In this document: positions 3,289 through 61,432 of the stretch, in pieces | Layout: every line of letters begins with the position of its first letter | Numbering within the stretch: the first letter of the stretch is position 1 | Source of the DNA: Acidobacteriota bacterium | GTDB taxonomy: Bacteria > Acidobacteriota > Terriglobia > 2-12-FULL-54-10 | Direction of reading: 5' to 3' | Length of the DNA: 64,000 nucleotides | Assembly (NCBI GenBank): GCA_009691245.1 | Contig: SHUM01000009.1 | Location: 7,960-71,959 of the forward strand | Translations under genes and position numbers: made by a program | The notes under the pieces: generated by a model | What the model was told of the DNA's origin: nothing | Databases searched by the model: none | The model's input: only the letters and a program-made list of their open reading frames with translations

Positions 3289-4956
<1,668 letters not shown>

Positions 4957-5969: not shown

Positions 5970-7808
5970 ATGGCCACGATTGAAACTGCTGCTCCCCGCA
6001 GCGCTGATTCCACGACGAAGCGCATCATGAATGACATGAGCCTTCAGATCGCCACGGTGAACGGCTCGGGCAGCCAGACCGCCAACACCATTTTGTTGCG
6101 GTCCATTTTCCAGATGGGCATCCCCATCTCGGGCAAGAATATTTTTCCGTCGAACATCGCCGGTCTGCCGACGTGGTACACCATCCGCGCCAACGCGCAT
6201 GGTTACGTCGCGCGCAAGAAGGAGATCGACTTCCTGATTGCGATGAATGCCGAGACCGCCATCGATGACGTGAAGGGTCTGCTGCCGGGCGCGGGCGTTG
6301 TTTATGACGAAGTGTTGAACCTGAAGGCCCTGCGCAACGACCTGGATTTTTATCCCGTTCCGTTCGACAAGTTGGTTACGCCGGTTTGTCCCGACGCGCG
6401 GCTGCGACGACTAGTCCGCAACATGATTTACGTGGGCGTCGTGGCGTACTTGCTCGACATCGATCTCGCCGAGGCCGAGAAGGCCATGCAAAAGCAGCTC
6501 GGCTCCAAGCCCAAGGCGTTGTCGCTAAACTGGAACGCCATCAACGCCGGCGTACAGTACGCCGCCGAGAAATTCCCGAAGTCGGCGAAGTTTGGTCTGG
6601 AGCGCATGAACAAGACCGCGGGGAAAATTCTGATTGACGGCAATACCGCCGCCGCCGTCGGATGCCTGTTCGCGGGCGTTACGGTGCTGGCCTGGTACCC
6701 CATCACTCCGTCGTCCTCGCTGGCCGAGGCGCTGATTGAATATCTGAAGGACTACCGCATCGACAAGGAGACCGGCAAGGCGACCTTCGCCGTGGTGCAG
6801 GCCGAAGACGAGCTGGCCTCGGTGGGCATGACGGTTGGCGCGGCCTGGGCAGGCGCGCGGGCCATGACCACCACGTCGGGTCCCGGCATCTCGCTGATGA
6901 GCGAATTCACGGGCTTGGCCTACTACGCGGAGATTCCCATCGTCATCTTCAACATTCAGCGCACCGGGCCCTCCACAGGCCTGCCAACGCGCACCATGCA
7001 GGCCGACATCCTGGCCACGGCGTTTCTTTCGCACGGCGACACCTCGCACCTCCTGCTGTTCCCCTATTCCGTGGAAGAGTGCTACCGCATGGCCATGGAG
7101 GCGTTCGATCTGGCCGAGCAGTTCCAGACTCCCGTGTTTGTGATGAGCGACCTGGACATCGGCATGAACAATTGGATGTCGGACCCGTTCATCTATCCGG
7201 ACAAGCCCATCAATCGCGGCAAGGTACTCAACGCGGAAGAGCTGGAGAAGATCGGCAAGTTCGAGCGATACCGCGACGTGGACGGCGACGGCATTCCCTA
7301 TCGCACGATACCGGGCACGCATCATCCGCTGGCCAGCTACTTCACGCGCGGCTCCGGCCACAACGAGAAGGCGCTCTACAGCGAGAAGCCCGAAGACTAC
7401 AAGAACAACATGGACCGCATCAAGCGCAAGCATGAGACGGCCCGTGGCGTGATCTCGCCGCCGCTGCTGGAGTCCGACGCCAATGCCGAGATCGGCCTGA
7501 TCGCCTTCGGCAGCACGCATTGGGCGATCATCGAGTCGCGCGACCAACTGCGCGATGAGCAGAACATCCCCACCGCGTATCTGCGCCTGCGGGCCTATCC
7601 GTTAAGCCCGGAGATCAAGGAATTTGTGAAGAAGTATAAGCGCGTCTACGTCGTCGAGCAGAACCGCGACGGACAGATGCGCGATCTGATTCGCTTGGAA
7701 GTCGGCAAGTACGCCGAAAAAGTTCGCAGCGTGCGGCACTATACAGGCTTCCCGATTGATGCCCGCACTATCACCGACGAAATTCTTGCACAGGAGATCG
7801 CAGGCTAA
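5970..7808 (+). CDS. korA: 2-oxoacid:ferredoxin oxidoreductase alpha subunit (fused gamma-alpha, KorA-type)
   Basis: 612 aa with an N-terminal gamma-like domain (NGSGSQTANTILLRSIFQMGIP) and a pyruvate/2-oxoglutarate:ferredoxin oxidoreductase alpha core. GAAGGAG RBS. Confidence 0.9.
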   Translation: MATIETAAPRSADSTTKRIMNDMSLQIATVNGSGSQTANTILLRSIFQMGIPISGKNIFPSNIAGLPTWYTIRANAHGYVARKKEIDFLIAMNAETAIDDVKGLLPGAGVVYDEVLNLKALRNDLDFYPVPFDKLVTPVCPDARLRRLVRNMIYVGVVAYLLDIDLAEAEKAMQKQLGSKPKALSLNWNAINAGVQYAAEKFPKSAKFGLERMNKTAGKILIDGNTAAAVGCLFAGVTVLAWYPITPSSSLAEALIEYLKDYRIDKETGKATFAVVQAEDELASVGMTVGAAWAGARAMTTTSGPGISLMSEFTGLAYYAEIPIVIFNIQRTGPSTGLPTRTMQADILATAFLSHGDTSHLLLFPYSVEECYRMAMEAFDLAEQFQTPVFVMSDLDIGMNNWMSDPFIYPDKPINRGKVLNAEELEKIGKFERYRDVDGDGIPYRTIPGTHHPLASYFTRGSGHNEKALYSEKPEDYKNNMDRIKRKHETARGVISPPLLESDANAEIGLIAFGSTHWAIIESRDQLRDEQNIPTAYLRLRAYPLSPEIKEFVKKYKRVYVVEQNRDGQMRDLIRLEVGKYAEKVRSVRHYTGFPIDARTITDEILAQEIAG

Positions 7809-7809
7809 T

Positions 7810-8862
7810 ATGGCAACCACGGCACAACCTCCAGCACCAGCAGCAAAGCTCAACCGCATCGGCCTTGAGCTGGCCACGTACCGCGGCGGCAAGACCACGC
7901 TATGCGCCGGCTGCGGCCACAACGTCATTACCGAACGCATCATCGAATCGTTCTGGGAGATGGGCGTCGATCCCTATCAAGTGGTCAAGCTCAGCGGCAT
8001 CGGTTGCTCGAGCAAGGCGCCCGCTTATTTCCTGAGCAGCTCGCATGGCTTCAACGCGGTCCACGGGCGCATGCCTTCGGTGGCGACGGGCACGATGCTG
8101 GCGAACAAAACGCTGAAGGCCATCGGCATCTCCGGCGACGGCGACACGGCGTCGATCGGCATGGGCCAATTTGTTCACCTGATGCGCCGCAATGTGCCGC
8201 TGATCTATGTCATCGAAGACAACGGCGTTTATGGTTTGACGAAGGGACAGTTCTCCGCCACCGCTGATAGGGGCTCACGTCAGAAGAACGGCGTGATCAA
8301 TGATCTGCCGGCCATCGACACCTGCGTGATGGCCATCGAGCTGGGCGCAACGCTGGTGGCGCGTTCGTTTTCCGGCGACAAGAAGCAGCTTTCGGCCATC
8401 ATGAAGGCGGCCATCGCCCATCAGGGCACCTCGATGCTGGACATCATTTCCCCCTGCGTAACCTTCAACGATCATCAGGGCTCCACCAAGAGCTACGAAT
8501 ACATGAAGGATCACGACGAGCCGCTGCACGAAATCGACTTTGTGCCGTTCTTCCAAAACATCGAAGTGAATTACGATCCAGGGGAGACCCAGGACGTGCA
8601 GATGCACGACGGCTCCATGCTGCGCCTGCGCAAGCTCGACAACGCCAGCTACGACGCCACCAACAAGAACGCCGCGCTGCGCGCCATCGAAGAAGCCCAT
8701 TCACGCGGCGAAGTGCTCACCGGCGTACTCTACGTGAACCCCAAGGGCGAGAACTTCCACGATCTGCTCAATCTGGTGGATCAGCCGTTGGCCACGCTGC
8801 CGCTCTCGATCACGCGTCCGCCCAAGTCGGCGCTGGACGAGATCATGGAAGAGTTGCGGTAA
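7810..8862 (+). CDS. korB: 2-oxoacid:ferredoxin oxidoreductase beta subunit (TPP-binding, KorB-type)
   Basis: CAGCGHNVI..., GIGCSS and a GDGD...IGMGQFVH thiamine-diphosphate motif. The ATG at 7810 is 1 nt after the korA stop. Confidence 0.9.
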   Translation: MATTAQPPAPAAKLNRIGLELATYRGGKTTLCAGCGHNVITERIIESFWEMGVDPYQVVKLSGIGCSSKAPAYFLSSSHGFNAVHGRMPSVATGTMLANKTLKAIGISGDGDTASIGMGQFVHLMRRNVPLIYVIEDNGVYGLTKGQFSATADRGSRQKNGVINDLPAIDTCVMAIELGATLVARSFSGDKKQLSAIMKAAIAHQGTSMLDIISPCVTFNDHQGSTKSYEYMKDHDEPLHEIDFVPFFQNIEVNYDPGETQDVQMHDGSMLRLRKLDNASYDATNKNAALRAIEEAHSRGEVLTGVLYVNPKGENFHDLLNLVDQPLATLPLSITRPPKSALDEIMEELR

Positions 8863-8897
8863 AACTGGCTGGAAAAATTTTAGCCGAAATATCCATT

Positions 8898-8926
8898 AGG
8901 CCCCCAACATTAAGGGGGCCTTTTTT
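8898..8926 (+). terminator. rho-independent terminator after korB
   Basis: GGCCCCC-aacattaa-GGGGGCC hairpin followed by TTTTTTG. Confidence 0.6.
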
Positions 8927-9062
8927 GCCAGATTCAGATAAAGTCTGTTAGCCTGTTGGCAATTCTTCATCCAGGCTGGGGAGCATTTCCAGGATGAAAA
9001 AGTTTTGTGGGTTGATAGTTGATCAAGAGTAATTACATCTAGTCAGAACGGGGAAAATACAA

Positions 9063-10388
9063 ATGAAGAACATTCGATCACACGTGCGCGTGTGCGCAAT
9101 CGGAGTTTGCTTGCTGGCCATTCCCATTTACATCGCGGCCCGCTCGGGAGGACCACCTTCCGGCGTAACCGGGGGATTTGGAGAGGGCAATTGTACGCAA
9201 TGCCACCGGACGAATCCTCTAAATACCGGGACGGGTTCGATAGTCATCACGGGACCAGCTACTTACCTGCCGGGAACAACCTATCCGATTCGTGTAACAG
9301 TTGCCAACCCCAACCCGGAGTCGCAACGCTGGGGATTCGAGTTGAGCACACGGAACCAGTCAGGGCAGCAGGCTGGAAGACTCCTTCCGGGAGGGGATGG
9401 CTATACTCAACTGCTTCCGGAATTGAATGGAATTCAGTATATCTCCCACACGGAAGTTGGCACACGGTTTGGAACACCCGCGGGAGTGAATTTTGATTTT
9501 CTGTGGCAGTCGCCTGCGTCTGCGGATGGTGCTTTGCAATTCCACGCCGCAGGCAATACCGCCAATGGAAGCACGAATAATACCGGCGATTTCATCTACA
9601 CAACTTCATTCAGCCCATCGCCCCGGACCGCGCCCATACCGGTGCCGGTGCTGCCGGCAAATGGAGTGGTTAATGGCGCCAGCTTTGCCCCCGGCACAGT
9701 GGCGGTTGCGCCGGGCTCCATCGTGGCCGTATTCGGCTCGAATCTTTCGGACGGAGGCACGCTGCTTTCCTCCGCCTTCGATGCTAACGGGCGGCAGGTC
9801 ACCGGTCTATTGGGAGCACGCGCCACCGTTGGCGGAGTTGCGGCTCCGATGTTCTATACGACTGGAGGACAATTGGGAATTCAGATTCCCACGGAGGTTT
9901 CCGGAACCAGCACAACGATTCAGATCTCCGTCGGCGGTGAGACCAGTGCAACGCGCACCATCGCACTTGAGCCAGCCGCTCCCGGAATTTTTACGACCAA
10001 TAGCCAGGGAAGCGGTCAGGGCGTGATTGTGCTGGCAACGGGCGGAGGAATCGCGGCGGCGGTGGGATCAATTAGCGGGGTTACGTCGCGGCCCGCGCGC
10101 CCGGGCGAGGACATCACGATATTCGCTACCGGCTTGGGGCAAACCAATCCGGTTGTGCCCACCGGGGCAAGGCCCACGACACTGACTCGAACGGTCGCCA
10201 CTCCCACGGTAATGATCGACGGCATGGCCGCGGATGTTTCGTTTTCCGGGCTATCGGATTGCTGTGTGGGACTGAACCAAATCAACGTGCGCGTGCCCGC
10301 CAATACGCGCACCGGCAACACTATTCCGGTGGTGCTTACCATCAGCGGGAAGCAGAGCAATTCCGTCACCATAGCAGTCGGGAACTAA
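9063..10388 (+). CDS. secreted protein with N-terminal CxxCH motif domain and TIGR03437-like (Solibacter-type) C-terminal Ig-like domain
   Basis: Signal peptide MKNIRSHVRVCAIGVCLLAIPIYIAA. A single c-type heme-binding motif CTQCH sits near the N-terminus. The C-terminal region (GASFAPGTVAVAPGSIVAVFGSNL...GLNQINVRVP) resembles the TIGR03437 Solibacter C-terminal domain. Confidence 0.6.
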   Translation: MKNIRSHVRVCAIGVCLLAIPIYIAARSGGPPSGVTGGFGEGNCTQCHRTNPLNTGTGSIVITGPATYLPGTTYPIRVTVANPNPESQRWGFELSTRNQSGQQAGRLLPGGDGYTQLLPELNGIQYISHTEVGTRFGTPAGVNFDFLWQSPASADGALQFHAAGNTANGSTNNTGDFIYTTSFSPSPRTAPIPVPVLPANGVVNGASFAPGTVAVAPGSIVAVFGSNLSDGGTLLSSAFDANGRQVTGLLGARATVGGVAAPMFYTTGGQLGIQIPTEVSGTSTTIQISVGGETSATRTIALEPAAPGIFTTNSQGSGQGVIVLATGGGIAAAVGSISGVTSRPARPGEDITIFATGLGQTNPVVPTGARPTTLTRTVATPTVMIDGMAADVSFSGLSDCCVGLNQINVRVPANTRTGNTIPVVLTISGKQSNSVTIAVGN

Positions 10389-10461
10389 ACTCGACAGTCA
10401 TCAGTCATGCGGTGCAGAACCTTTGCACCGCAATTTTTTTGTCCCAAGGAAGTGATTGGAA

Positions 10462-12633
10462 CTAGAAACTCCACAGACGCGTGTACTTGACCGTCATACT
10501 CCAATCGTTCAATGAGCGGCGGCGGTCGCGGACATCGTTATAGACCACGTAAATGTCGCTCAGCGGGCGGTAGATGAAGCGGTAGCGAAGGTTCGAGCTG
10601 ATGGTATCCGTCTCGCTGTTGTATTGGACGAAGGAGTTCAAAAACATTCTGGCGCTGAAGGAATAGTCCGCGCGGAAGCCAAGCAGATTGGTGACGAACG
10701 CGCCTTCGGGCAGGTCGATATCATTGCGCTCCAGGCTGACGATGGTGGAGAGGCGGTAGGTGGGCCGGTACTGTGCGCTGGCGGTGATCTCGGTGCGGTC
10801 GCCGCTGTAGAAGCGGGCCCAGACGTATTCCAGCTTGCCGGAGAGCGGTTTGCTGGTGTCGGAGAAGAACCAGGCTTTGGACTCATTGAAATGGTAGTCG
10901 CGGGCGGGCAGGATCACGGCGCGGCTGACTTCGAATGGCTGCCGCAGCCGCTCGAAATTTTGCTCATAGTGCGCGCCGAAATCGCTGCCGTCCTGAAAAT
11001 TCAAGCGCACCTGGGAGAGCATGTACTTCGTTTCGGTGCCGCCTTCACCGAACAGGATGTGTTGGGTCAGATTGGAGACGAACACATCGCGCACGTAGCG
11101 GCCGATCCGAGACTGCGTATTGAGACGCGGCTTGAGCTCAAGAAAATTTCGCAGGTTGCGGCGGTCGCGTCGCCGCACAAAGCCCATCTCGGGATTGAAG
11201 TTTCGTCCGATGTCCACCACGCTACCAGAGGCTCGGAAGATGTTGGTGTTGTAGTCAACTTCGGCCTTGCCCAGACGATTGTCGCCTTCGCGTTCGGGAG
11301 TCCATGTCTGCGCCAGAGCGCCGCTGAAGCGCAGTGTGTTGCGGAGGAACAGCAGGTTGCCATCCGCGCCCAGCGCACGGTTGTGGTCCTGATCCAAGCC
11401 GGAGCGGCGGTTGAGAAACATTAGGCCCACATCGGAATTCTGAAAAACATTCCGACGCAGCCGCGCCACGCTGAAGTTGGTTGCCGGGACGGCAGCGTCC
11501 GAGCGCGTCTGCATGTTGAGCAGGCCGAGGTAATATTCACCCGCCCGTCCCGTGAGCCGCGCGCCGCCCAGGATGGGAACCGGCTGGCCACCAGCGAGTC
11601 CAATCGTCCGGCTGTGAAATAAGAGAGCTTCCTCGTTGGTCAGCGAACCGAATTGAAAGATGCCCGCGTTCTCCAGGAAGAATTCGCGTTTTTCCGCGAA
11701 GAAGAGCGGGAAGCGCGTCAGGTTCACCTGCTGCGTGTCCGCTTCCACATGAGAGAAGTCGGTGTTGACGGTTAGATCGAGGCTCAGGCCCGGCGTGAGG
11801 CCGTACTTGAGGTCCACGCCGCCATCGGGGTCGAATTTCGTCTTTTCGTCTCTCGATGCGAAGCGCGTTACGCCAGCCAGCGCGAAGGGTTTCACATAGA
11901 AGTTGCGGCCCGGCTCGACGTTTTCGATGCCGCGCAGCTCGCCCGCCATGGCGATGCCGCTGATGCCGGTGTGCCGCCGGGGGAGCGGCGACCAGAAGCT
12001 TACTTCATTGCGCCGGCGAATGCGCCGGACAAATTGCGCACCCCACACCTGCTCTTTCTGCCGGCTGAAGCGAAGCGTGTTGAAGGGAATGGCCATCTCC
12101 ACGGTGTAGCCATCGTCGGTGAATTGGCCCTCCGAGTACCACACGCCATCCCAATTCACGTTCTGGTTGCGGCCCTCGCTGAAGAACTGGATGTCGCGCT
12201 GATTGCCCAGCACGGTGGCGCCCAGATAGTAGCCGTTGCGGTCGTCGTTGAAGGTATCCAGGATGACGGCGATGTAGTCCTGTTCCTGAATGTCGAAGTC
12301 ATGGCCCAGATCATTGATGATGACGCCGTTCTTGGTGCGGTCGTGGCACCAAGCCGCCACGTAAAGAAATTCCTTGTCGTACAGGACGCGGAACTCCGTC
12401 TTCTCCGTGGGGGGCTGTCCTTCTTCGGGTTCCTTCTGAACCAACCCCGTGATGAGTTCCGCCGTCTGCCACGCGGGTTCATCTGGCTTGCCGTCGATGG
12501 TGATTTTGGCGTCGGTGAAGCGGGCATGGGTAATCAGCTTGCCGTTCGAGCTGGTGGCGTCGGGGGCTTGCGGGCGGAGCGGCGCAGGCAGGGCGATCAA
12601 CAGCAATGCGACTGGAAGCAGCAACCTGCCCAT
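10462..12633 (-). CDS. DUF5916 / carbohydrate-binding family 9 (CBM9)-like outer-membrane protein, paralog 1
   Basis: Start moved to the internal Met, giving signal peptide MGRLLLPVALLLIALPAPL. It has a CBM9-like N-terminal domain (GKPDEPAWQTAE...DTFNDDRNGYY...WDGVWYS) and a beta-rich C-terminal region ending in Phe (YTRLWSF), typical of OM beta-barrels. Confidence 0.7.
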   Translation of the reverse strand: MGRLLLPVALLLIALPAPLRPQAPDATSSNGKLITHARFTDAKITIDGKPDEPAWQTAELITGLVQKEPEEGQPPTEKTEFRVLYDKEFLYVAAWCHDRTKNGVIINDLGHDFDIQEQDYIAVILDTFNDDRNGYYLGATVLGNQRDIQFFSEGRNQNVNWDGVWYSEGQFTDDGYTVEMAIPFNTLRFSRQKEQVWGAQFVRRIRRRNEVSFWSPLPRRHTGISGIAMAGELRGIENVEPGRNFYVKPFALAGVTRFASRDEKTKFDPDGGVDLKYGLTPGLSLDLTVNTDFSHVEADTQQVNLTRFPLFFAEKREFFLENAGIFQFGSLTNEEALLFHSRTIGLAGGQPVPILGGARLTGRAGEYYLGLLNMQTRSDAAVPATNFSVARLRRNVFQNSDVGLMFLNRRSGLDQDHNRALGADGNLLFLRNTLRFSGALAQTWTPEREGDNRLGKAEVDYNTNIFRASGSVVDIGRNFNPEMGFVRRRDRRNLRNFLELKPRLNTQSRIGRYVRDVFVSNLTQHILFGEGGTETKYMLSQVRLNFQDGSDFGAHYEQNFERLRQPFEVSRAVILPARDYHFNESKAWFFSDTSKPLSGKLEYVWARFYSGDRTEITASAQYRPTYRLSTIVSLERNDIDLPEGAFVTNLLGFRADYSFSARMFLNSFVQYNSETDTISSNLRYRFIYRPLSDIYVVYNDVRDRRRSLNDWSMTVKYTRLWSF

Positions 12634-12721
12634 TGATTCCGTTCGATGGTTCTCTGCATTGCGGATGGATTTGCAACAGCCCCTTGCGGCATGAAGTTGG
12701 GGAAGTTCGCTCAAGAATGAA

Positions 12722-12759
12722 ACCAGCCTCTCAAAAACTGACCAGCCTCTCAAAAACTA
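12722..12759. repeat. 19-bp direct tandem duplication (ACCAGCCTCTCAAAAACTR x2)
   Basis: Two adjacent 19-bp copies span the stop codon of the downstream DUF5916 paralog and the intergenic spacer between the two paralogs. Confidence 0.5.
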
Positions 12760-14936
12760 AATAGGTGCGTGTACTTGATCGTGAGGCTGCTGTCGGCAAG
12801 CTCGCGGCGGCGGTCGCGCACATCATTATATACGACGTAGATGTCGCTCAACGGACGGTGAATGAAGCGGAAGCGGATGTTCGAGTTGATCGAGTCCGTC
12901 TCGTTGTTGTACTGGAAGAAAGTATTTAGGTACATCTTGGGATTGAATGACCAGTCAATGTGCGAGCCCACCAGATTGGTGGTGAACTCCCCGCGCGGCA
13001 TCGTGATGTGATTTCGTTCGTAGTCTAAGGTAGCCCGCAGTCGGTATCCAGATCGGAGAATTGTGTTCAGGTTCCATGTCTGAATGGTGCCGTCGTAAAA
13101 ATTGCCCCATCCATACAATACGAGACCGGAGATGGGCTTGCTCTGGTCGGAATGGTAGCCAATGGCAGTCTGACTGTATGGAAAATCACCGGAAAGGACG
13201 GGAACGGCAAAGGGTAGATCAAAAGGCCGAGTCAGTCTTTCAAACCTTCTCTCATGCTGGACGACTAATACGCTGCCATCCTGAAACTCAAGATTGAAAG
13301 GCATCAAGAGACTTTTTGTTTCAGTGCGGCCATCCGAAAGGACAACATACTCGGAGGTAACCAGCGGCACCCAGTCGCGCACCCACTTGCCGAGCTTGGA
13401 GTCGGCGTTCTGACGGATGCGCCATTCAAACTCGTTGCGCGCGATGCGCCGCCCGCGCCGCTGGACAAAGCCCATGCGCGGATTGAAGTTCGCTCCGATG
13501 TCCAAATACGAGCTGAAGAAGCGGATTTCGTTGTTCTGATACTCGCCTTCAATTTTCTTGATCCAGTCATCGCCTTTCAGATTGGGTGAATCGGTGCGGG
13601 CGGCCAGCGTGCTGAGGCGCAGATCGGTGCGGAAGAAAACCAGGTTCTGGTCCACGCCAAAGGCGTGGTTCGTGTCATTCGGCAGGCTCGATTGCCTGTT
13701 CAGAAAGATCGCGCCGACATCCGAAGCGCCGAGAATGTTCTGCCGCACGCGCGCAACAGAAAAGTTTGTTGCGGGTATATTGCGCTCTGAACGCGTCTGC
13801 ATGTTCAGCAGACCGATGGAGGTGTTGCCTTGCCGTCCGCTGAGGCGCGCGCCACCGAAGATGGGAATGGGCTGACCGCTTTCGAGTCCAATAGTGCGTG
13901 AGTGGAACAGTAGCGCCTCATTGCGCCGCAGCGCGCCGAACTGGAAGATGCCGGAGTTCTCGAGGAAGAACTCGCGCTTCTCGGGGAAGAACAGCGGGAA
14001 GCGTGTGAGGTTCACCTGCTGCGTGTCGGACTCGACGTGCGAGAAATCCGTGTTGCCGGTTACGTCCAGCACCATGCCGGGCGTGATGCCGTATTTAATG
14101 TCCAAGCCGCCGTCAAAGTCGCCATCGGCCTTTTTCCCGCGCGAGGCCAGCCGCTCCACGCCCGCAATGGCGTAGGGCTTGATCTGCAGGCTGTGGCCGG
14201 GTTGCACATCCTCAATGCCGCGCAGTTCGCCGGCGTAGGACAACGCGCGCGTCAGACTATAGCGCCGCGGCGGCATGGACCAGTAGGTACTCTCGTTGCG
14301 CCCCCTCATGCGGCGGTAGAAATGCACGCCCCAGGTCTGCTGCTGATCGCGATTGAAGCGCAGCGTCTTGAACGGAATGGCCATCTCGACCGTGTAGCCA
14401 TCGGGGCCGCGCTGAGTTTCCGCATACCACACACCATCCCAATTGGTGTTGCTGGAGCGGCCTTCGTCAGAGACTTGCCTGTCGTGCTGGCTGCCGCCGG
14501 GGGAAGTGGCAAAGTAGTAGCCGCTGTGGCCGTCGTTGAAGGTGTCGAGCAGCAGGGTGAAGTAGTCCTGGTTGAGCGTGTCGAAGTCGCGGCGAATATC
14601 GTTGTTGACGATTTTGCTCGGCGTGCGGTCGTGGCAGATGGCCGAGACATAGAGGAAGTCGTGATTGAACAGCACGCGGACTTCGGTCTTCTCGCTGGCC
14701 GGCTCGCCCTCGCGCGGGTCCTGTTGGAGAAAGTCGGCATTCACTTCAGCGGTCTGCCAAGCAGGCTCATCGAGCTGCCCATCAATTGTGATGATTGAAT
14801 CGGTGAATATGGCGTTCGAGACGCGTCTTGATTTCGTGGCATCTGTTTGTCCAAACAGAACAGGGATCGTTCCGAGAGCCAGAAGGAAATACATTCCTCG
14901 GGCACCAATACGCCCGCCAATCATTGCAAGATTCAT
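12750..14936 (-). CDS. DUF5916 / CBM9-like outer-membrane protein, paralog 2 (tandem duplicate)
   Basis: About 55% identical to paralog 1 over full length (DEPAWQTAE, LLDTFNDGHSGYY, TVEMAIPFKTLRF), with a C-terminal YTHLFSF. The start was chosen at the Met giving signal peptide MNLAMIGGRIGARGMYFLLALGTIPVLFG. Exact start is uncertain. Confidence 0.7.
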   Translation of the reverse strand: MNLAMIGGRIGARGMYFLLALGTIPVLFGQTDATKSRRVSNAIFTDSIITIDGQLDEPAWQTAEVNADFLQQDPREGEPASEKTEVRVLFNHDFLYVSAICHDRTPSKIVNNDIRRDFDTLNQDYFTLLLDTFNDGHSGYYFATSPGGSQHDRQVSDEGRSSNTNWDGVWYAETQRGPDGYTVEMAIPFKTLRFNRDQQQTWGVHFYRRMRGRNESTYWSMPPRRYSLTRALSYAGELRGIEDVQPGHSLQIKPYAIAGVERLASRGKKADGDFDGGLDIKYGITPGMVLDVTGNTDFSHVESDTQQVNLTRFPLFFPEKREFFLENSGIFQFGALRRNEALLFHSRTIGLESGQPIPIFGGARLSGRQGNTSIGLLNMQTRSERNIPATNFSVARVRQNILGASDVGAIFLNRQSSLPNDTNHAFGVDQNLVFFRTDLRLSTLAARTDSPNLKGDDWIKKIEGEYQNNEIRFFSSYLDIGANFNPRMGFVQRRGRRIARNEFEWRIRQNADSKLGKWVRDWVPLVTSEYVVLSDGRTETKSLLMPFNLEFQDGSVLVVQHERRFERLTRPFDLPFAVPVLSGDFPYSQTAIGYHSDQSKPISGLVLYGWGNFYDGTIQTWNLNTILRSGYRLRATLDYERNHITMPRGEFTTNLVGSHIDWSFNPKMYLNTFFQYNNETDSINSNIRFRFIHRPLSDIYVVYNDVRDRRRELADSSLTIKYTHLFSF

Positions 14937-56652: not shown

Positions 56653-57562
56653 TCAGTCAGTTATGCGTAGTCACTCAGTCGAACTTACACCGATTCGCAC
56701 TACGTACTTATTAGTCCTGGCCGCGGCGCTTCTGATGATTGTTCCTGATACGGCGCAGGCGGCGGGGCGGGCGGAGTGCAAGACTGTCGCCAGCAAGATT
56801 CTGGGCCGCGCCGTGCGCTACTGCGCGCTGCTGCCCGCCAGCTTTGACGCAAGCCCCGCGCGCCGTTACCCGATCCTCTATCATCTTCACGGCATGGGCG
56901 ACAACGAGCAGACGCTGCTGCGTCTCGGTGGATGGGACCTGATCGAGCGGCTGGCCAAGCAAGGCAAGATCGGCGAATTCGTGGTGGCCACGCCGGCGGC
57001 GGGTTCGACCTGGTACATCAACTCGAAGGACGGCAAGGAGCGCTACGAGGACTTCTTCCTGCAGGAGTTCATGCCCGCCATCGAGCAGAGGTATAGAGCC
57101 ACGGGCACGCGCGCTGCGCGTGGGATCACCGGCGTCTCGATGGGCGGCTACGGCGCATTGCGCTTCGCGTTCAAGTATCCGCAAAAATTCGCCGCCGTCT
57201 CGGCGCACAGCGCCGCGCTGATGGAACAGATGCGCCCCTCGTTGTCCCAGGCGTTTGGCCGCGGCTTCCGGGCCTTCGGCGAACCGTTTGACGCGGCCTA
57301 TTGGAATGAGAACACGCCCTTCGCGCTGATTCGCGCCACGGGAGGAGTCGCCAGGCTGGCGGGCTTGAAGATCTATTTTGATTGCGGCTCAGAGGATGAT
57401 TACGGGTTCCATGAGGGCGCCCGCGCGCTCACCAAACTGCTAGGCGAACGAAAAGTGGCTCACGAGTATCATCTCTATCCCGGAGGCCATGACGCGCTCT
57501 ACGTTGCCGAGCACATCGACGAGTCACTGGAGTTTCAGTCACGCGCGCTGGGCGCCAAGTAA
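56645..57562 (+). CDS. secreted esterase (esterase D/enterochelin-esterase-like alpha/beta hydrolase)
   Basis: Signal peptide and the putative-esterase family nucleophile elbow GVSMGGYGAL. The start is uncertain: the ATG at 56645 overlaps the permease stop and there is an alternative at 56663. Confidence 0.75.
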   Translation: MSSQSVMRSHSVELTPIRTTYLLVLAAALLMIVPDTAQAAGRAECKTVASKILGRAVRYCALLPASFDASPARRYPILYHLHGMGDNEQTLLRLGGWDLIERLAKQGKIGEFVVATPAAGSTWYINSKDGKERYEDFFLQEFMPAIEQRYRATGTRAARGITGVSMGGYGALRFAFKYPQKFAAVSAHSAALMEQMRPSLSQAFGRGFRAFGEPFDAAYWNENTPFALIRATGGVARLAGLKIYFDCGSEDDYGFHEGARALTKLLGERKVAHEYHLYPGGHDALYVAEHIDESLEFQSRALGAK

Positions 57563-57586: not shown

Positions 57587-57680
57587 CAATCAGAGCCGCG
57601 ACCGGGAGGGAGCGGACCAGTTTATTGATAACTGGAAATCGTCGAACGGGTCCGCTCTCTTCCGGTTGCGGCTCTGATTG
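57587..57680. repeat. structured palindromic repeat element, copy 1 (about 94 nt, long outer stem + two inner hairpins)
   Basis: CAATCAGAGCCGCGACCGGGAGGGAGCGG...CCGCTCTCTTCCGGTTGCGGCTCTGATTG forms an outer helix whose 3 mismatches are all G.U on the plus strand. Inner hairpins are CCAGTT-tattgat-AACTGG and CGTCGAACG. It lies between convergent genes. Copy 2 is at 60351-60468. Confidence 0.6.
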
Positions 57681-57712
57681 CGTCATCAGTAAAAAGTGTG
57701 GTGAAACTGGGG

Positions 57713-58891
57713 TCAGCGATAGAAATTCAGGATTTCTTCCACCACGCGCTGCTGCTGGTCGCTGCTCAGTTCCGGGAAGAGCGGCAGTGAAAGCACTTCG
57801 GCGGCGGCGCACTCGGCCTCGGGGCACTGCGCTGAATCGGCGTCGAATCCCTGGAAGGCGGGCTGGCGATGCAGCGCTACGGGATAGTAGATCATGGTGC
57901 CAATGCCGCGCGCTCGCAGGTGCGCAGCCAACTCGTCGCGGCGTAATGCGCGGATGGTGAATTGATGATAGACGTGTTCACCCGCTAGACTCTCATGCGG
58001 CAAGACCACGGGTGCATCTTCTGTTGGATAAACCGCCGCTGGGTCATGCCGGCTGGCTGCGCCGAAAATTTTCGCAAAGAATCGGCGATAGTCCGCCGCG
58101 CGCGCGCGCCGCTGATCGGTCCACTCGCGCAGATGTTTTGACTTCACTAACAAGATGGCCGCCTGCAACGTATCGAGGCGGCTGTTGATGCCGACTTCGG
58201 GGTAGGTCAGCCGGTCGCTGGAGCCGTGGTTGCGCAGACGCCGCAGACGGGCAGCCAGGGCTGCGTCGCGCGTGGTGATCATGCCGCCATCGCCCGCGCC
58301 GCCGAGATTTTTGGTGGGATAAAAGCTGAAGCAACCGGTGATGCCCAGCGATCCGGCGGGCTGCCCGTGATACGTCGCCAGGATGGCCTGGGCGGCATCC
58401 TCGACGATATGGGCTTCATATTTTCGCGCCAGTGCCAGCAATGGGTCCATCTCGGCGCACTGTCCGTAGAGATGCACGGGAATGATGAGCTTGATCTTTT
58501 TTCCGTAGACCGGATCGGCCAGCGCCGCCTCAACTGCTGTCGCGCTGATGTTCAGCGTGCGCGGATCGATGTCGGCGAAAATGGGCCGCGCTCCCGCGCG
58601 CACCACCGCTCCGGCTGTGGCAAAAAACGTCAGCGGCGGGACCACCACGGCGTCGCCCGGACCAATACCCAGCGCCAAGATCGACAGCAGCAGAGCGTCG
58701 GAGCCATTGGCGCAGCCGACCGCATCGTCGCAGCCCTGCATCACGGCGATGGCGCGCTCCAGTTGCTCAACTTCTTCGCCCAATACAAAGTTCTGCCGCT
58801 CCAGGACGCGGGTCACTGCGGCGGCGATCTCCGCGCGGAGCGATTCATGCTGGATTCTTAAATTAATGACGGGAATGGTTGGTGGATTCAC
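57713..58891 (-). CDS. DegT/DnrJ/EryC1/StrS family PLP-dependent sugar aminotransferase
   Basis: The aspartate-aminotransferase fold carries a PLP-lysine region (GCFSFYPTKNLGGAGDGG). The start is uncertain: GTG at 58891 was chosen, and the ORF track extends to a TTG at 59029 that overlaps the upstream gene. Confidence 0.75.
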   Translation of the reverse strand: MNPPTIPVINLRIQHESLRAEIAAAVTRVLERQNFVLGEEVEQLERAIAVMQGCDDAVGCANGSDALLLSILALGIGPGDAVVVPPLTFFATAGAVVRAGARPIFADIDPRTLNISATAVEAALADPVYGKKIKLIIPVHLYGQCAEMDPLLALARKYEAHIVEDAAQAILATYHGQPAGSLGITGCFSFYPTKNLGGAGDGGMITTRDAALAARLRRLRNHGSSDRLTYPEVGINSRLDTLQAAILLVKSKHLREWTDQRRARAADYRRFFAKIFGAASRHDPAAVYPTEDAPVVLPHESLAGEHVYHQFTIRALRRDELAAHLRARGIGTMIYYPVALHRQPAFQGFDADSAQCPEAECAAAEVLSLPLFPELSSDQQQRVVEEILNFYR

Positions 58892-58955
58892 AGGGTAGTT
58901 TTGGGGAACTTCAATATGAGGATGCGTTTGCCGTCTGATTTTACGCGCAGAGCCG

Positions 58956-59612
58956 CTACTTGCGAGTGATTTCCACGCCGGCCTCCGGGATACTGATTTT
59001 CTGAATCGCGCCGTTTTCGCGGGCCACAATCTCCATCTCCAGTTCGTCGGTCGTTACTTTCCAGCGCTCTTCGTCATTGGTCTTACCCACAAAAACCAGA
59101 TTCACGGTGCCCGGCAGGGCTTCCTGCGGGATAAACACATTAAAGAGCTGCTCGCCGCCTTGGCTGCGCGTGTATTGCCGGAGCAGAAACGTGTAATGGT
59201 GAAAGAAATTCGTATCGAGAATAATCAGAAATCCCGGGTTCAGAAAAAAGACGCGTTCGGCGCTCTCTTTGCCGCTGGTCGCCACCAGCGAAGTTTCCTT
59301 CTCTCCAAAGCGCACGGCCAGGCTGGCGACCAGCGGCGACTTCTGCTCGCGCAGATAATCGTCGGGACGCATCGTCGCGGCCAGTCGCAGTGTGGCCTTT
59401 TCCTCAAGCGTGGCGTCGCCTGCCATCAACGAGAGTTCGGCGTGCGACTCCCACCATGCGCCGTTGCGCGCGATGCGAAACTTCTCGGTGCCCACCAACT
59501 GCCCGACGGAACGAATCTCAAATGTTCCGCTATCGGAAAAATTTCCGGACGCCTGAGCGCACGCCATGCGCGGAGACAGCATCAACAAAGCCGCAGCCAG
59601 CATGAACATTGC
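58956..59612 (-). CDS. hypothetical secreted protein
   Basis: Signal peptide MFMLAAALLMLSPRMACAQA. No recognisable domain. It lies between aroK and the aminotransferase gene on the same strand. Confidence 0.5.
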   Translation of the reverse strand, partial: AMFMLAAALLMLSPRMACAQASGNFSDSGTFEIRSVGQLVGTEKFRIARNGAWWESHAELSLMAGDATLEEKATLRLAATMRPDDYLREQKSPLVASLAVRFGEKETSLVATSGKESAERVFFLNPGFLIILDTNFFHHYTFLLRQYTRSQGGEQLFNVFIPQEALPGTVNLVFVGKTNDEERWKVTTDELEMEIVARENGAIQKISIPEAGVEITRK

Positions 59613-59656
59613 CAGCGCGTGAGTGAAAGCAGGTAGCCTGAAGCCACGAAGGGCGA

Positions 59657-60292
59657 TCAGGTTTGGGATAAGTTGGAAGGTGCCTGGTTGATCCATTGGT
59701 TTCCCTGAAAAAACGGTAGCGCGAGAATCTGTTGTACCACATCGGATGGCTCGGCGCGCCCGGAACGTACCGAATAAGTGGCCTGCTGGTAGTAGGGCCG
59801 GCGCTCTTCGTAGAGGAGGCGAAAGCTGGCCTCATCGCGGAACAGCGGGCGGTTGGGAATCAGTGCACAACGCATGAGCAGCTCCTCCAGTGGGCACTCC
59901 ACCCAAACAGTAACCGCTCCAGCGCGTTGCATCAATTCAAAGTTGGCTGGCTGAGCGAACGTCCCGCCGCCCAGCGCAATCACGCGCCCCGCGCCGGGCT
60001 GGCTGGTCTGACGAAGAGACTCCTCCAACAGCCTGCGCAGGACATCATACTCGCGGCGGCGGAAGGCGCCCTCGCCGTGGCGCGCGAAGATATCCGCGAT
60101 AGTAGCCGCTTCCTCCTGCTCGATGAGCGCGTCCAGATCCACAAACTTCCAAGCCACACGCTGCGCCAGCAGACGTCCCGCCGTGGATTTACCGCAGCCC
60201 ATGAAACCCACCAGAAAAATGACGTTAGCCAGAGACGGCGTGGATGGTTGAGCCGGAGTGGTGGCGTGAGCGTCTAATGGGTTGGTGGTCAT
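59657..60292 (-). CDS. aroK: shikimate kinase (with about 20-aa N-terminal and C-terminal extensions)
   Basis: Walker A GFMGCGKST, shikimate-binding FRRRE and the LID region. 211 aa. Confidence 0.85.
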   Translation of the reverse strand: MTTNPLDAHATTPAQPSTPSLANVIFLVGFMGCGKSTAGRLLAQRVAWKFVDLDALIEQEEAATIADIFARHGEGAFRRREYDVLRRLLEESLRQTSQPGAGRVIALGGGTFAQPANFELMQRAGAVTVWVECPLEELLMRCALIPNRPLFRDEASFRLLYEERRPYYQQATYSVRSGRAEPSDVVQQILALPFFQGNQWINQAPSNLSQT

Positions 60293-60350
60293 CGCGATGC
60301 TTAGCGGGGAAATGTCCCCACTTGCAGTTTACCGCGCGGCAACGGGAACG

Positions 60351-60468
60351 CCAAATAGTGCCACATAGTGACAGTGCCGCGACCGGGAGGGAGCGGTCCA
60401 GTTTCAATGGTCACTGGGAATCGTCGAGCGCGACCGCTCCCTTCCGGTCGCGGCTCTATTTGGGTCAC
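60351..60468. repeat. structured palindromic repeat element, copy 2
   Basis: GCCGCGACCGGGAGGGAGCGG...CCGCTCCCTTCCGGTCGCGGC outer helix with one G.U on the plus strand. Inner hairpins are CCAGT-ttcaatggtc-ACTGG and GTCG-agcg-CGAC. Compared with copy 1 the inner loops differ but pairing is kept. Confidence 0.6.
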
Positions 60469-60499: not shown

Positions 60500-61432
60500 T
60501 TACTGGCCCGCCGTGCCGGTGCCGCGCAGGCGAATGGTGCCGCTGAAGGAGTTCACTTCCACGTTGGCGTCGCCGGAGTTGAGGCGGCCTTGCAGGAACT
60601 TGCCAGGCGGCAGGCGGCGAAAGGCAATTCCTTCCGGCGTGGGGCGGAAGGTCAGATTGCTCTGAACCGTTCCTTGCACGGAGCGCGCGGTCAGGTTGAA
60701 GCTGGCGTTACGCGAGGCGATGATCTCGATGGGCGAGCTGTAGCTGTTCAGGACGTATGAGCCGCCCTGTCCAAAGTCGCCTTCATAGCTGATCTCGCCG
60801 GAATTGGTGTTGGCAATCAGCGACGCGCCGCTGACGCGCATGAACTTCATGTCACCGCTGATCGACTCCGCCGTTACATTTCCTAGTGAGGCGATCATCT
60901 GGATCGGTCCATCCACGGTCTTCAGCGCGATATCGCCCTGCACGCCGGAGATGGCCACGGCGGTGCTCACGCCATCCACTAACACTGGCCCAGCGATGTT
61001 GCTTACGGAGACCTGACCGCGATCGGTCTTCAGTCGCACGTCGGTGTGCCGGGGCACCTGAATGGTCAGGTCCACGCGGGCGTCTTCTGACGTCATGCGC
61101 TCGCGCCGTGGGTGGCTCTGGATGCTGACTTTGTCCGCACTGCCGTCAATGCTTACTTCCATGGCATCCGAGCCGGACTCGCCCTGTATCTCAATCTCAT
61201 TCTGATCCCATCCCGTAACGCTAACCTTACCGGTCTGTGTGCGCAACTCCAGCACGGGATTTTCCGTAGTGGCGATCCTGCGGCGAATGCTCTCCGCGTA
61301 AACGGAGGTCAGGCCCAGCAATAGCGCGCCGCCCAGCAGAATAGCACGCCGGCCGTTCGCCGGTTTACGCACCACTTTATGCTCCGCTGAGCGCTCCGGC
61401 GTGTGGGGAGAAGCTAGAAATTGTCGTTCCAT
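60500..61432 (-). CDS. DUF4097 family beta-repeat protein (putative adhesin/anti-sigma-associated)
   Basis: N-terminal TM, then repetitive beta-strand units (GDI.L.T..G.I, VSGDMKF) typical of DUF4097. It is downstream of the anti-sigma factor in the same operon. Confidence 0.7.
   Translation of the reverse strand: MERQFLASPHTPERSAEHKVVRKPANGRRAILLGGALLLGLTSVYAESIRRRIATTENPVLELRTQTGKVSVTGWDQNEIEIQGESGSDAMEVSIDGSADKVSIQSHPRRERMTSEDARVDLTIQVPRHTDVRLKTDRGQVSVSNIAGPVLVDGVSTAVAISGVQGDIALKTVDGPIQMIASLGNVTAESISGDMKFMRVSGASLIANTNSGEISYEGDFGQGGSYVLNSYSSPIEIIASRNASFNLTARSVQGTVQSNLTFRPTPEGIAFRRLPPGKFLQGRLNSGDANVEVNSFSGTIRLRGTGTAGQ

Follow-up and report, generated by a model that had tools for sequence, protein, structure and literature searches.

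Among described families of short dispersed repeats, REPINs are mobilised by RAYTs (Bertels and Rainey 2011, PMC3116915), the REP and BIME sequences of E. coli are associated with TnpA-REP (Messing et al. 2012, PMC3479197), and GTAG- and CGTC-tagged superfamilies of REPs have been defined (Di Nocera et al. 2013, PMC3733652). The system closest to the elements described here is that of the class 3 TnpA-Y1 (HuH tyrosine) genes, which are flanked by a REP-like box with a CnGA foot in Acidobacteria, Planctomycetes and Legionella; the REP-like sequences located next to these genes are given in Table S1 of Quentin et al. 2018 (BMC Genomics 19:475, PMC6006769). According to the same paper, class 3 proteins have a mean pairwise identity of 60.7% and a patchy distribution, went undetected by Bertels et al. 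2017 and belong to none of the RAYT groups defined there, and include no enzyme that has been biochemically tested.

Here, we analysed a 64-kb stretch of DNA (the window) in which two copies of a repeat had been taken, from the sequence alone, for a structured RNA with covarying helices, a MITE/REP-like element being the alternative. The REP-like part of this alternative was borne out, as the box that makes up both copies matched published REP-like sequences. The main value of the analysis lies in this reclassification, from an apparent covarying structured RNA to a doublet whose REP-like box is already published, and the element is therefore not to be pursued as a new sRNA.

Structure of the two copies

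The two copies are genuine and cannot be ascribed to chance: allowing up to 3 mismatches, the window contained four occurrences of the 21-nt core GCCGCGACCGGGAGGGAGCGG (two plus-strand arms and two minus-strand arms), versus 0.03 in shuffled sequences. Both copies reported by the sequence-only reading were present, copy 1 with exactly the limits given at the time (57587-57680) and copy 2 at about 60372-60458, the interval proposed for it (60351-60468) exceeding this by about 30 nt. In each copy, two units of the same box, CnGA-GCCGCGACC-GNNA-GGGAGCGG, whose limits are sharp, stand in inverted orientation around a spacer of 36-37 nt; no strand is assigned to the doublets or to their spacers. 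The box, of about 25 nt, begins with the foot CnGA (4 nt); the weak hairpin that follows has two stems, of 4 and 2 bp, separated by a 2x2 internal loop (G.A/A.G) and capped by a GNNA tetraloop. Over 216 arms, the foot was conserved at C(-4) (72%), G(-2) (93%) and A(-1) (95%) and was followed by the 21-nt core, past which no base exceeded about 54% at any position.

Copy 1 is a 94-nt, REPIN-like head-to-head doublet (57587-57680), forming an inverted repeat with 36-nt arms that are 89% complementary. Its left box (57591-57615, plus strand) comprises the foot CAGA (57591-57594) and an exact match to the core, GCCGCGACC-GGGA-GGGAGCGG (57595-57615). As single-stranded DNA, this box was predicted to fold as .....((((..((....))..))))... 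at -5.2 kcal/mol, the same fold as that of the PMC6006769 entry. The spacer (57616-57651, 36 nt) holds an inner hairpin, CCAGTT/AACTGG. The right box (57652-57676, minus strand) has the core GCCGCAACCGGAAGAGAGCGG, with 3 mismatches, all of them G-to-A changes, and again a CAGA foot (57673-57676); the small hairpin of this box has lost its inner 2-bp stem and is weaker (-3.4 kcal/mol as single-stranded DNA). Copy 1 is located between convergent genes, 24 nt past the stop codon of an esterase gene and 32 nt past that of a DegT gene.

Copy 2 is an 87-nt head-to-head doublet (60372-60458), with a left box on the plus strand (60372-60396) whose core is exact (60376-60396), a 37-nt spacer of the type B subfamily (60397-60433), and a right box on the minus strand (60434-60458) with the core GCCGCGACCGGAAGGGAGCGG (60434-60454). 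Both feet are degenerate, CAGT on the left and TAGA on the right (60455-60458), each one change away from CnGA, and copy 2 may for this reason have lost its mobility. It lies between the stop of a DUF4097 gene (60500) and the start of aroK (60292), both on the minus strand; copy 2, like copy 1, lies just past a stop codon.

Comparison with published REP-like sequences

The stems and foot of the box were identical to those of the S. usitatus sequence CAGAGCCGCGACCGTTAGGGAGCG in Table S1 of PMC6006769, and the stems were also identical to the Legionella pneumophila entry of that table; only the two middle loop bases differed from the published class 3 sequences. The likeness covers the foot (CAGA, which fits CnGA), the stems (CCGCGACC and GGGAGCGG), the 2x2 internal loop, the 4-nt G..A loop and the predicted fold, ((((..((....))..)))), as well as the host phyla (Acidobacteria, including relatives of Solibacter, Planctomycetes and Legionella) and a multi-copy, intergenic occurrence. 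The loop, however, is GGGA or GGAA here and GTNA in the published examples. Moreover, the published boxes are single and lie next to tnpA, whereas those of the window form head-to-head doublets of about 90 nt, with a subfamily-specific spacer and no detected tnpA nearby, in an uncultured acidobacterium outside that paper. Judged by these identities, copies 1 and 2 are inverted doublets of the already described CnGA-foot REP-like box. A literature search with the raw sequence string returned only unrelated primer matches.

Overall, we consider it very probable that the elements are REPIN-like doublets of the class 3 REP-like box, that is, ordinary miniature mobile DNA rather than a new structured RNA. 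As in REPINs and BIMEs, two inverted REPs around a short spacer form one long hairpin; the elements are extragenic, often past stop codons, lack target-site duplications and also occur as singlets and clusters; and the variable bases are common to both arms, as if copied as one unit. They differ from REPINs and BIMEs in their foot, which is CnGA and not of the GTAG type, in the weakness of each box hairpin (-5 kcal/mol as single-stranded DNA), which is interrupted by tandem G.A, in the enzyme class with which the box is associated in PMC6006769, class 3 and not a group 2 or 3 RAYT, and in the conservation of the box across phyla, classical REPs being usually lineage-specific. With the superfamilies of Di Nocera et al. 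(PMC3733652), the elements share a tag followed by an 8-9 bp stem and a 4-5 nt loop, a predominance of head-to-head over tail-to-tail pairs, arms that often have different loops ('heterodimers') and doublets placed inside small copy-specific palindromes, but the tag is here neither GTAG nor CGTC.

Distribution and arrangement of the box

The box was found in more than 200 loci, belonging to Acidobacteriota, Planctomycetota, Dehalococcoidia, Legionella and phage contigs. A genome scan yielded at least 120 of these, mostly from Bryobacterales, Solibacteraceae and other Acidobacteriota, together with Planctomycetota; among the matches listed, the phyla were those reported for class 3. The box was also present in Legionella records and in 81 IMG/VR contigs. 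Its extension to Dehalococcoidia and phage contigs is a modest addition to what was described for class 3. More than 20 blocks were observed, among the matches listed, in a single genome (OZ252029.1), one locus of which carries two doublets at a spacing of 2.78 kb, similar to that of the window, with spacers unlike those of the window copies. Two doublets are visible for the source organism, both within the window, and we extrapolate a high copy number for its genome; two metagenome scans yielded zero further copies of the same subfamily.

Two kinds of doublets were observed: head-to-head (33 doublets) and tail-to-tail (9 doublets). Singlets and direct tandem arrays were also common, in unrelated contexts, and the formation of REPIN-like doublets of both kinds and of tandem arrays by class 3 boxes is likewise a modest addition. 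In 37 of the 42 doublets, the two arms agreed in the variable n of the CnGA foot, versus about 28% expected for independent arms, which suggests, despite the many singlets and direct arrays, that a doublet may spread as one unit. Palindromic extensions of 4-11 nt, specific to each copy, were also observed around doublets, and some tail-to-tail copies of Bryobacterales had CGTCAGA before the core, a feature that was not general. For the periodic arrays of 30 nt and 68 nt, a CRISPR nature was ruled out, as they had no unique spacers.

Target-site duplications and transposase genes

No target-site duplication was detected in the 33 head-to-head doublets, the flanking direct repeats being 0-1 nt long in 29 of them, and none was present at copy 1 or copy 2, as expected for Y1/HuH transposition. 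The sequence-only reading had proposed that many copies with target-site duplications would indicate a simple MITE: the many copies were found, the duplications were not. A conventional MITE, i.e., a deletion derivative of a DDE-transposase IS with the 21-25 nt box as its terminal inverted repeat, would account for the short non-coding interior bordered by terminal inverted repeats and for dispersed intergenic copies whose presence differs between relatives. However, the box also occurs alone, tail-to-tail and in direct tandem arrays, which is not how terminal repeats are arranged; no parent IS bounded by boxes was found among 207 loci; and the published association of the box is with HuH-Y1 genes, not with DDE transposases (PMC6006769). 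Together with the lack of duplications, this makes a MITE of that kind extremely improbable. Like Correia/NEMIS MITEs and the palindrome-associated derivatives of IS200/IS605 (PATEs), the elements are short, non-coding, hairpin-forming, dispersed and non-autonomous; unlike these, they are not flanked by target-site duplications, a parent IS was not found, and their recognition unit is a single box able to stand alone.

Neither a class 3 tnpA nor any other Y1 transposase gene was found in the window or in the other 206 loci, using two motif regex scans (NHVH ... YV[VI]xEQ), phmmer with approximate IS200, IS608 and ISDra2 sequences as queries, and Pfam on the four best candidate ORFs. At one locus, where two boxes lie 580 nt apart, no credible ORF was present between them. 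A Legionella CDS adjoining a box was ruled out as a transposase, since it encodes a small secreted protein. An attC or integron site was also discarded as improbable, since no boxes of the R''/R' consensus are present and the flanking genes are housekeeping genes.

By analogy with the TnpA-REP of E. coli and the TnpA of IS200/IS605, a class 3 HuH-Y1 nuclease, with its gene at another place in the genome, would bind the small hairpin on single-stranded DNA and cut beside the CnGA foot, and boxes or whole doublets would then be excised and re-joined without target duplication. On the same analogy, we infer that the doublets are non-autonomous mobile DNA. The strongly conserved box is a well-defined candidate substrate for class 3 HuH enzymes.

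Arm pairing and RNA structure

Selection for plus-strand pairing in a structured RNA (an sRNA, a 3'-UTR stabiliser, or a processing or termination signal) would agree with several features of the two copies. The predicted RNA hairpins were very stable, and more so for the plus than for the minus strand (-72.3 versus -58.3 kcal/mol for copy 1, and -60.7 versus -55.0 kcal/mol for copy 2), with z-scores of -12.5 and -7.4, respectively, for plus-strand RNA compared to shuffles. Folded as plus-strand DNA, copy 1 reached -38.7 and copy 2 -33.5 kcal/mol (z = -10.3 and -6.8). Moreover, both copies lie just past stop codons, and the GNNA loop and tandem G.A of the box are RNA-like features. In E. coli, REPs protect upstream mRNA against 3' exonucleases, which also counts in favour of an RNA role. 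Under the REPIN-like reading, too, the long hairpin of the present elements would form in read-through transcripts, where it may incidentally stabilise 3' ends.

All outer mismatches had been described as G opposite T on the plus strand, compatible with G.U pairs. This held for the four mismatches of the 21-bp core (three in copy 1 and one in copy 2), but not for the foot of copy 2, just outside the core, where one A.C mismatch and one transversion mismatch were observed. Four out of four G.T was not significant; given transitions only, its chance is 1/16 for the named strand. Moreover, a transcript reading through copy 2 would be minus-strand, because both flanking genes are on the minus strand, and the mismatch there would be C.A, not G.U. 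In the 42 doublets, arm mismatches comprised 13 G.T, 11 A.C and 28 transversions. At least two transition mismatches were present in six doublets, five of which mixed G.T and A.C. These counts argue against selection on a plus-strand RNA structure. The commonest mismatch positions were the two middle bases of each box's tetraloop, which points to a constraint on each small REP hairpin and not on the long helix.

Compensatory change was observed at one pair just inside the core, which flips from A-T to T-A between the two copies. In a set of four sequences that included the ortholog and paralog copies of a relative, L124 (91-93% identical), however, the covariation of the proposed structure did not exceed that of shuffled controls (score 0.140 versus 0.139, a level reached by 240 out of 500 shuffles). 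Of the two inner hairpins thought to be retained, the first (CCAGT(T)/(A)ACTGG) was common to both copies, whereas the second had only 3-4 bp, with different, shifted pairings in each copy. The first was paired in only 66.7% of cells in the four-sequence set, with no double-sided change, and the inner hairpin of copy 1 was lost in the orthologous copy of L124.

No Rfam 15 family matched at gathering thresholds across the window, and none matched within the elements at E values up to 10. An intrinsic terminator (G+C-rich hairpin followed by a U-tract) was not found on the relevant strand, nor at copy 1; the sole terminator-like match in an element was in copy 2, on the plus strand, whereas its two neighbouring genes are minus-strand. 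Singlets, tail-to-tail doublets and direct tandem arrays are also better explained by a DNA recognition site than by a single RNA fold. On this evidence, we regard a structured RNA selected for its plus-strand pairing as unlikely.

Two other RNA candidates were rejected. A hammerhead-like CUGAUGA in tandem copies matched no ribozyme model. The box also matched, at 15 of 20 positions, the apex of SRP RNA helix 8 (E. coli 4.5S sequence); no SRP model matched, and the published REP accounts for the box.

Differences between relatives

A further modest addition is that box presence differed between relatives that are about 92% identical. In L124, copy 2 was absent from the same intergenic site, which contained about 155 nt of unrelated filler, with neither a clean empty site nor a precise insertion boundary. 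At the copy 1 site, where the window has a single doublet, two doublets in L124 exactly bounded a 5.3-kb island containing an amidase and a type ISP restriction-modification system. In a relative of 63% identity, both sites were empty.

Such an island could be expected if the box were a host-domesticated DNA site, i.e., a chromosomal-protein binding or recombination site or a hotspot of island exchange, kept for a genome-structural role. The 21-nt core was, moreover, identical from Acidobacteriota to Planctomycetota, Dehalococcoidia, Legionella and phage contigs, an identity unusually strong for a selfish repeat. However, a single island was observed, and homologous recombination between any two repeats gives the same picture; the identity across phyla can be explained by the closely related (60.7%), patchily distributed class 3 proteins; and no candidate binding protein was identified. 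A domesticated site of this kind seems very unlikely.

There is a slim chance that the box of the REPIN-like doublets is also a host signal (as structured RNA or single-stranded DNA), or that pairs of doublets serve as portable arms for recombination, by which defence islands are loaded and unloaded, because the core is identical across phyla and because the G..A tetraloop and tandem G.A belong to the classic nucleic-acid motifs bound by proteins. The type ISP island of L124, lying between two doublets, would be an example of the recombination-arm role.

Two palindromes in the window share one core

The window contains two imperfect palindromes, copy 1 at 57587-57680 and copy 2 at approximately 60372-60458. 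They share a 21-nt core, GCCGCGACCGGGAGGGAGCGG, of which the window has four occurrences at up to three mismatches, two per strand, versus 0.03 in dinucleotide shuffles; a profile search of the 64-kb window revealed no further copies. When folded as RNA, the plus strand of copy 1 gave -72.3 kcal/mol (z = -12.5 versus shuffles) and that of copy 2 gave -60.7 kcal/mol (z = -7.4). Folded as DNA, the same strand yielded -38.7 and -33.5 kcal/mol, respectively, far better than shuffles. With core count and folds so far beyond shuffles, the pair of elements noticed in the sequence-only reading is real, although the span proposed there for copy 2 (60351-60468) was too wide. The neighbouring genes and their orientations had been read correctly: copy 1 lies between convergent genes, a plus-strand esterase gene (stop at 57562) and a minus-strand DegT aminotransferase gene (57713-58816), and copy 2 is bordered by two minus-strand genes, namely a DUF4097 gene (stop at 60500), which is the last gene of an ECF sigma/anti-sigma operon, and aroK (start at 60292).

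The arms are copies of a known REP-like box

A genome scan with a degenerate arm, using one genome per species, returned at least 120 loci, and 216 arms from the listed loci and the window were aligned. The search pattern imposed the match over most of the core and left the foot free. In these arms, the foot was characterized by C at -4 (72%), any base at -3, G at -2 (93%) and A at -1 (95%), followed by the 21-nt core; elsewhere outside the core, the most frequent base reached at most about 54% at every position, so that the edges of this box of approximately 25 nt are sharp. The box alone forms a small hairpin: four G-C pairs are followed by a 2x2 G.A/A.G internal loop and then by two C-G pairs, which close a four-base G-N-N-A loop. 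The core varies at two positions, both in the middle of this last loop.

Quentin et al. 2018 (PMC6006769) defined class 3 as a small group of HuH-Y1 proteins that occur chiefly in Planctomycetes, Acidobacteria and Proteobacteria. In Table S1 of that study, S. usitatus is listed with the REP-like sequences CAGAGCCGCGACCGTTAGGGAGCG and CGGAGCCGCGACCGTAAGGGAGCG and L. pneumophila with CCGAGCCGCGACCGTAAGGGAGCGGA, and the structure is given as ((((..((....))..)))). The window's CAGAGCCGCGACCGGGAGGGAGCGG has a foot and stems identical to those of the class 3 entries, and differs from them in the two middle loop bases alone. Because of this match, both window elements are, as judged by sequence, inverted pairs of an already described REP-like box and members of a published family; the terminology of Bertels and Rainey would call them REPIN-like. 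The REP-like option mentioned in the sequence-only reading was thus the right one. Both copies may be decaying, since the feet of both arms are degenerate in copy 2 and the small hairpin is weakened in the right arm of copy 1.

Arm mismatches do not support a selected RNA

The structure had previously been ascribed to selection on a plus-strand RNA, with covariation, on the grounds that outer-stem mismatches were all G opposite T. Within the 21-bp core this holds for 4 out of 4 mismatches in the two window copies, which correspond to four events, all plus-strand C-to-T changes. Across 42 doublets, however, we counted 13 G.T, 11 A.C and 28 transversion mismatches, most commonly at loop positions 11 and 10, and of the six doublets with at least two transition mismatches, five combined G.T with A.C. 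In an alignment of four sequences (the two window copies and two from the close relative L124), covariation of the proposed structure was 0.140, versus 0.139 in shuffles, and inner hairpin 1 was paired in 66.7% of cells, with zero double-sided changes. Such changes were located beyond the box, in flanking sequence specific to each copy; one core-adjacent pair flips between A-T and T-A and separates two subfamilies, representing at most one event. Moreover, a transcript of copy 2 would come from the minus strand, on which its mismatch is C.A. The elements had no Rfam match, and no terminator was found at them on a relevant strand. A selected RNA structure is therefore unsupported.

The box is dispersed across phyla

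The same box occurs in very different surroundings: head-to-head doublets (30-127 nt from arm start to arm start), tail-to-tail doublets, singlets and tandem arrays. Hosts among the matches listed were mainly Acidobacteriota (Bryobacterales, Solibacteraceae) and Planctomycetota, but also Dehalococcoidia, and the box was present in Legionella adelaidensis records and in 81 IMG/VR contigs; given the latter, phages may harbour the box or help to spread it. Members of the family are scattered over several phyla in REP-family arrangements, and their presence differs among close relatives. Three side observations are worth keeping: the identity of the box across phyla, its occurrence in phage contigs and an island bracketed by doublets.

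Four boxes lie in an intergenic region (3803-4202) of a 5.9-kb IMG/VR contig (L169), between portal-like and large-terminase-subunit-like ORFs; judged from ORF translations, this contig looks like one bearing portal, capsid-like and terminase genes. The arrays comprised 11 direct boxes repeating every 30 nt in a Bryobacteraceae MAG (L082, 7025-7385), 68-nt tandem units in two IMG/VR contigs (L177, 13159-13451; L133, 1365-1657) and 160-nt tandem units in a Dehalococcoidia MAG (L047, 5810-6151). They are not CRISPR arrays, because unique spacers are absent. Diverged boxes were also observed on L. adelaidensis NCTC12735 'plasmids' 9, 11 and 19 in PLSDB (NZ_LR134420.1, NZ_LR134418.1 and NZ_LR134428.1; L121, L122 and L126). 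These carry the housekeeping genes valS, proS, purA and hflKC, L121 has a tRNA-gene-like sequence (judged by eye), and all three resemble pieces of a chromosome that were labelled as plasmids.

Doublets vary among relatives and border an island

The window locus recurs, with identical elements, in ENA ERZ1305449 and Logan SRR8561390; the source organism is uncultured. L124 shares 91-93% nucleotide identity with the window over syntenic genes (96% for the DegT protein). Its copy 2 site (4309-4463) lacks the doublet and holds approximately 155 nt of unrelated filler. The filler contains GTCATTCTGAGCGCAGCGAAGAATC, which looks like a further short repeat that is widespread in soil bacteria; different repeats seem able to settle at this intergenic site. 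In L125, a 63% relative, the spacers at the two sites are only 75 and 99 nt long, and neither has a box.

The DegT-side doublet is retained in L124, where two REPIN-like doublets exactly bound a 5.3-kb block (7224-12487), the second abutting the esterase flank. The block contains an amidase gene, a 72-aa ORF and two genes of a type ISP restriction-modification system, in which N6_Mtase/Eco57I and Type_ISP_C domains were recognized, whereas the window has one doublet (57587-57680) and no block. The difference could be explained by insertion of the block or by its deletion through recombination of one doublet with the other, and could be a case of island gain or loss at or between repeats.

No target-site duplication was found in 33 head-to-head doublets, which fits HuH-Y1 chemistry and argues against the elements being a DDE-type MITE. 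The variable foot base was identical in both arms in 37 of the 42 doublets, versus about 28% expected. By analogy with E. coli TnpA-REP and the IS608/ISDra2 TnpA, a class 3 HuH-Y1 nuclease would bind the small box hairpin on single-stranded DNA, cleave beside the CnGA foot and move boxes or doublets. Neither the 64-kb window nor any other retrieved locus yielded its gene, as expected for one to three gene copies per genome.

Other repeats

In OZ252029.1 (Bryobacterales), several head-to-head doublets sit within a larger conserved repeat with approximately 50 nt of common flank per side (L021 5086-5266, L023 1655-1835, L043 6156-6316, L049 7582-7762 and L108 966-1146), which may represent a longer composite element. 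In a Phycisphaerales MAG (L119, 1950-2700), two inverted boxes lie 580 nt apart, with no credible ORF between them. A GCAGAG/GCGGAGA-rich repeat (GAACGCAGAGTTCGCAGAGCGCGCAGAGGACGCGGAGA) borders each box, likewise in inverted orientation. Finally, three collinear direct repeats (D1-D3) at 10466-14403 of the window share 71-74% identity at an offset of exactly 2288 nt, which indicates that a segment of approximately 2.3 kb was duplicated in tandem and has since diverged.
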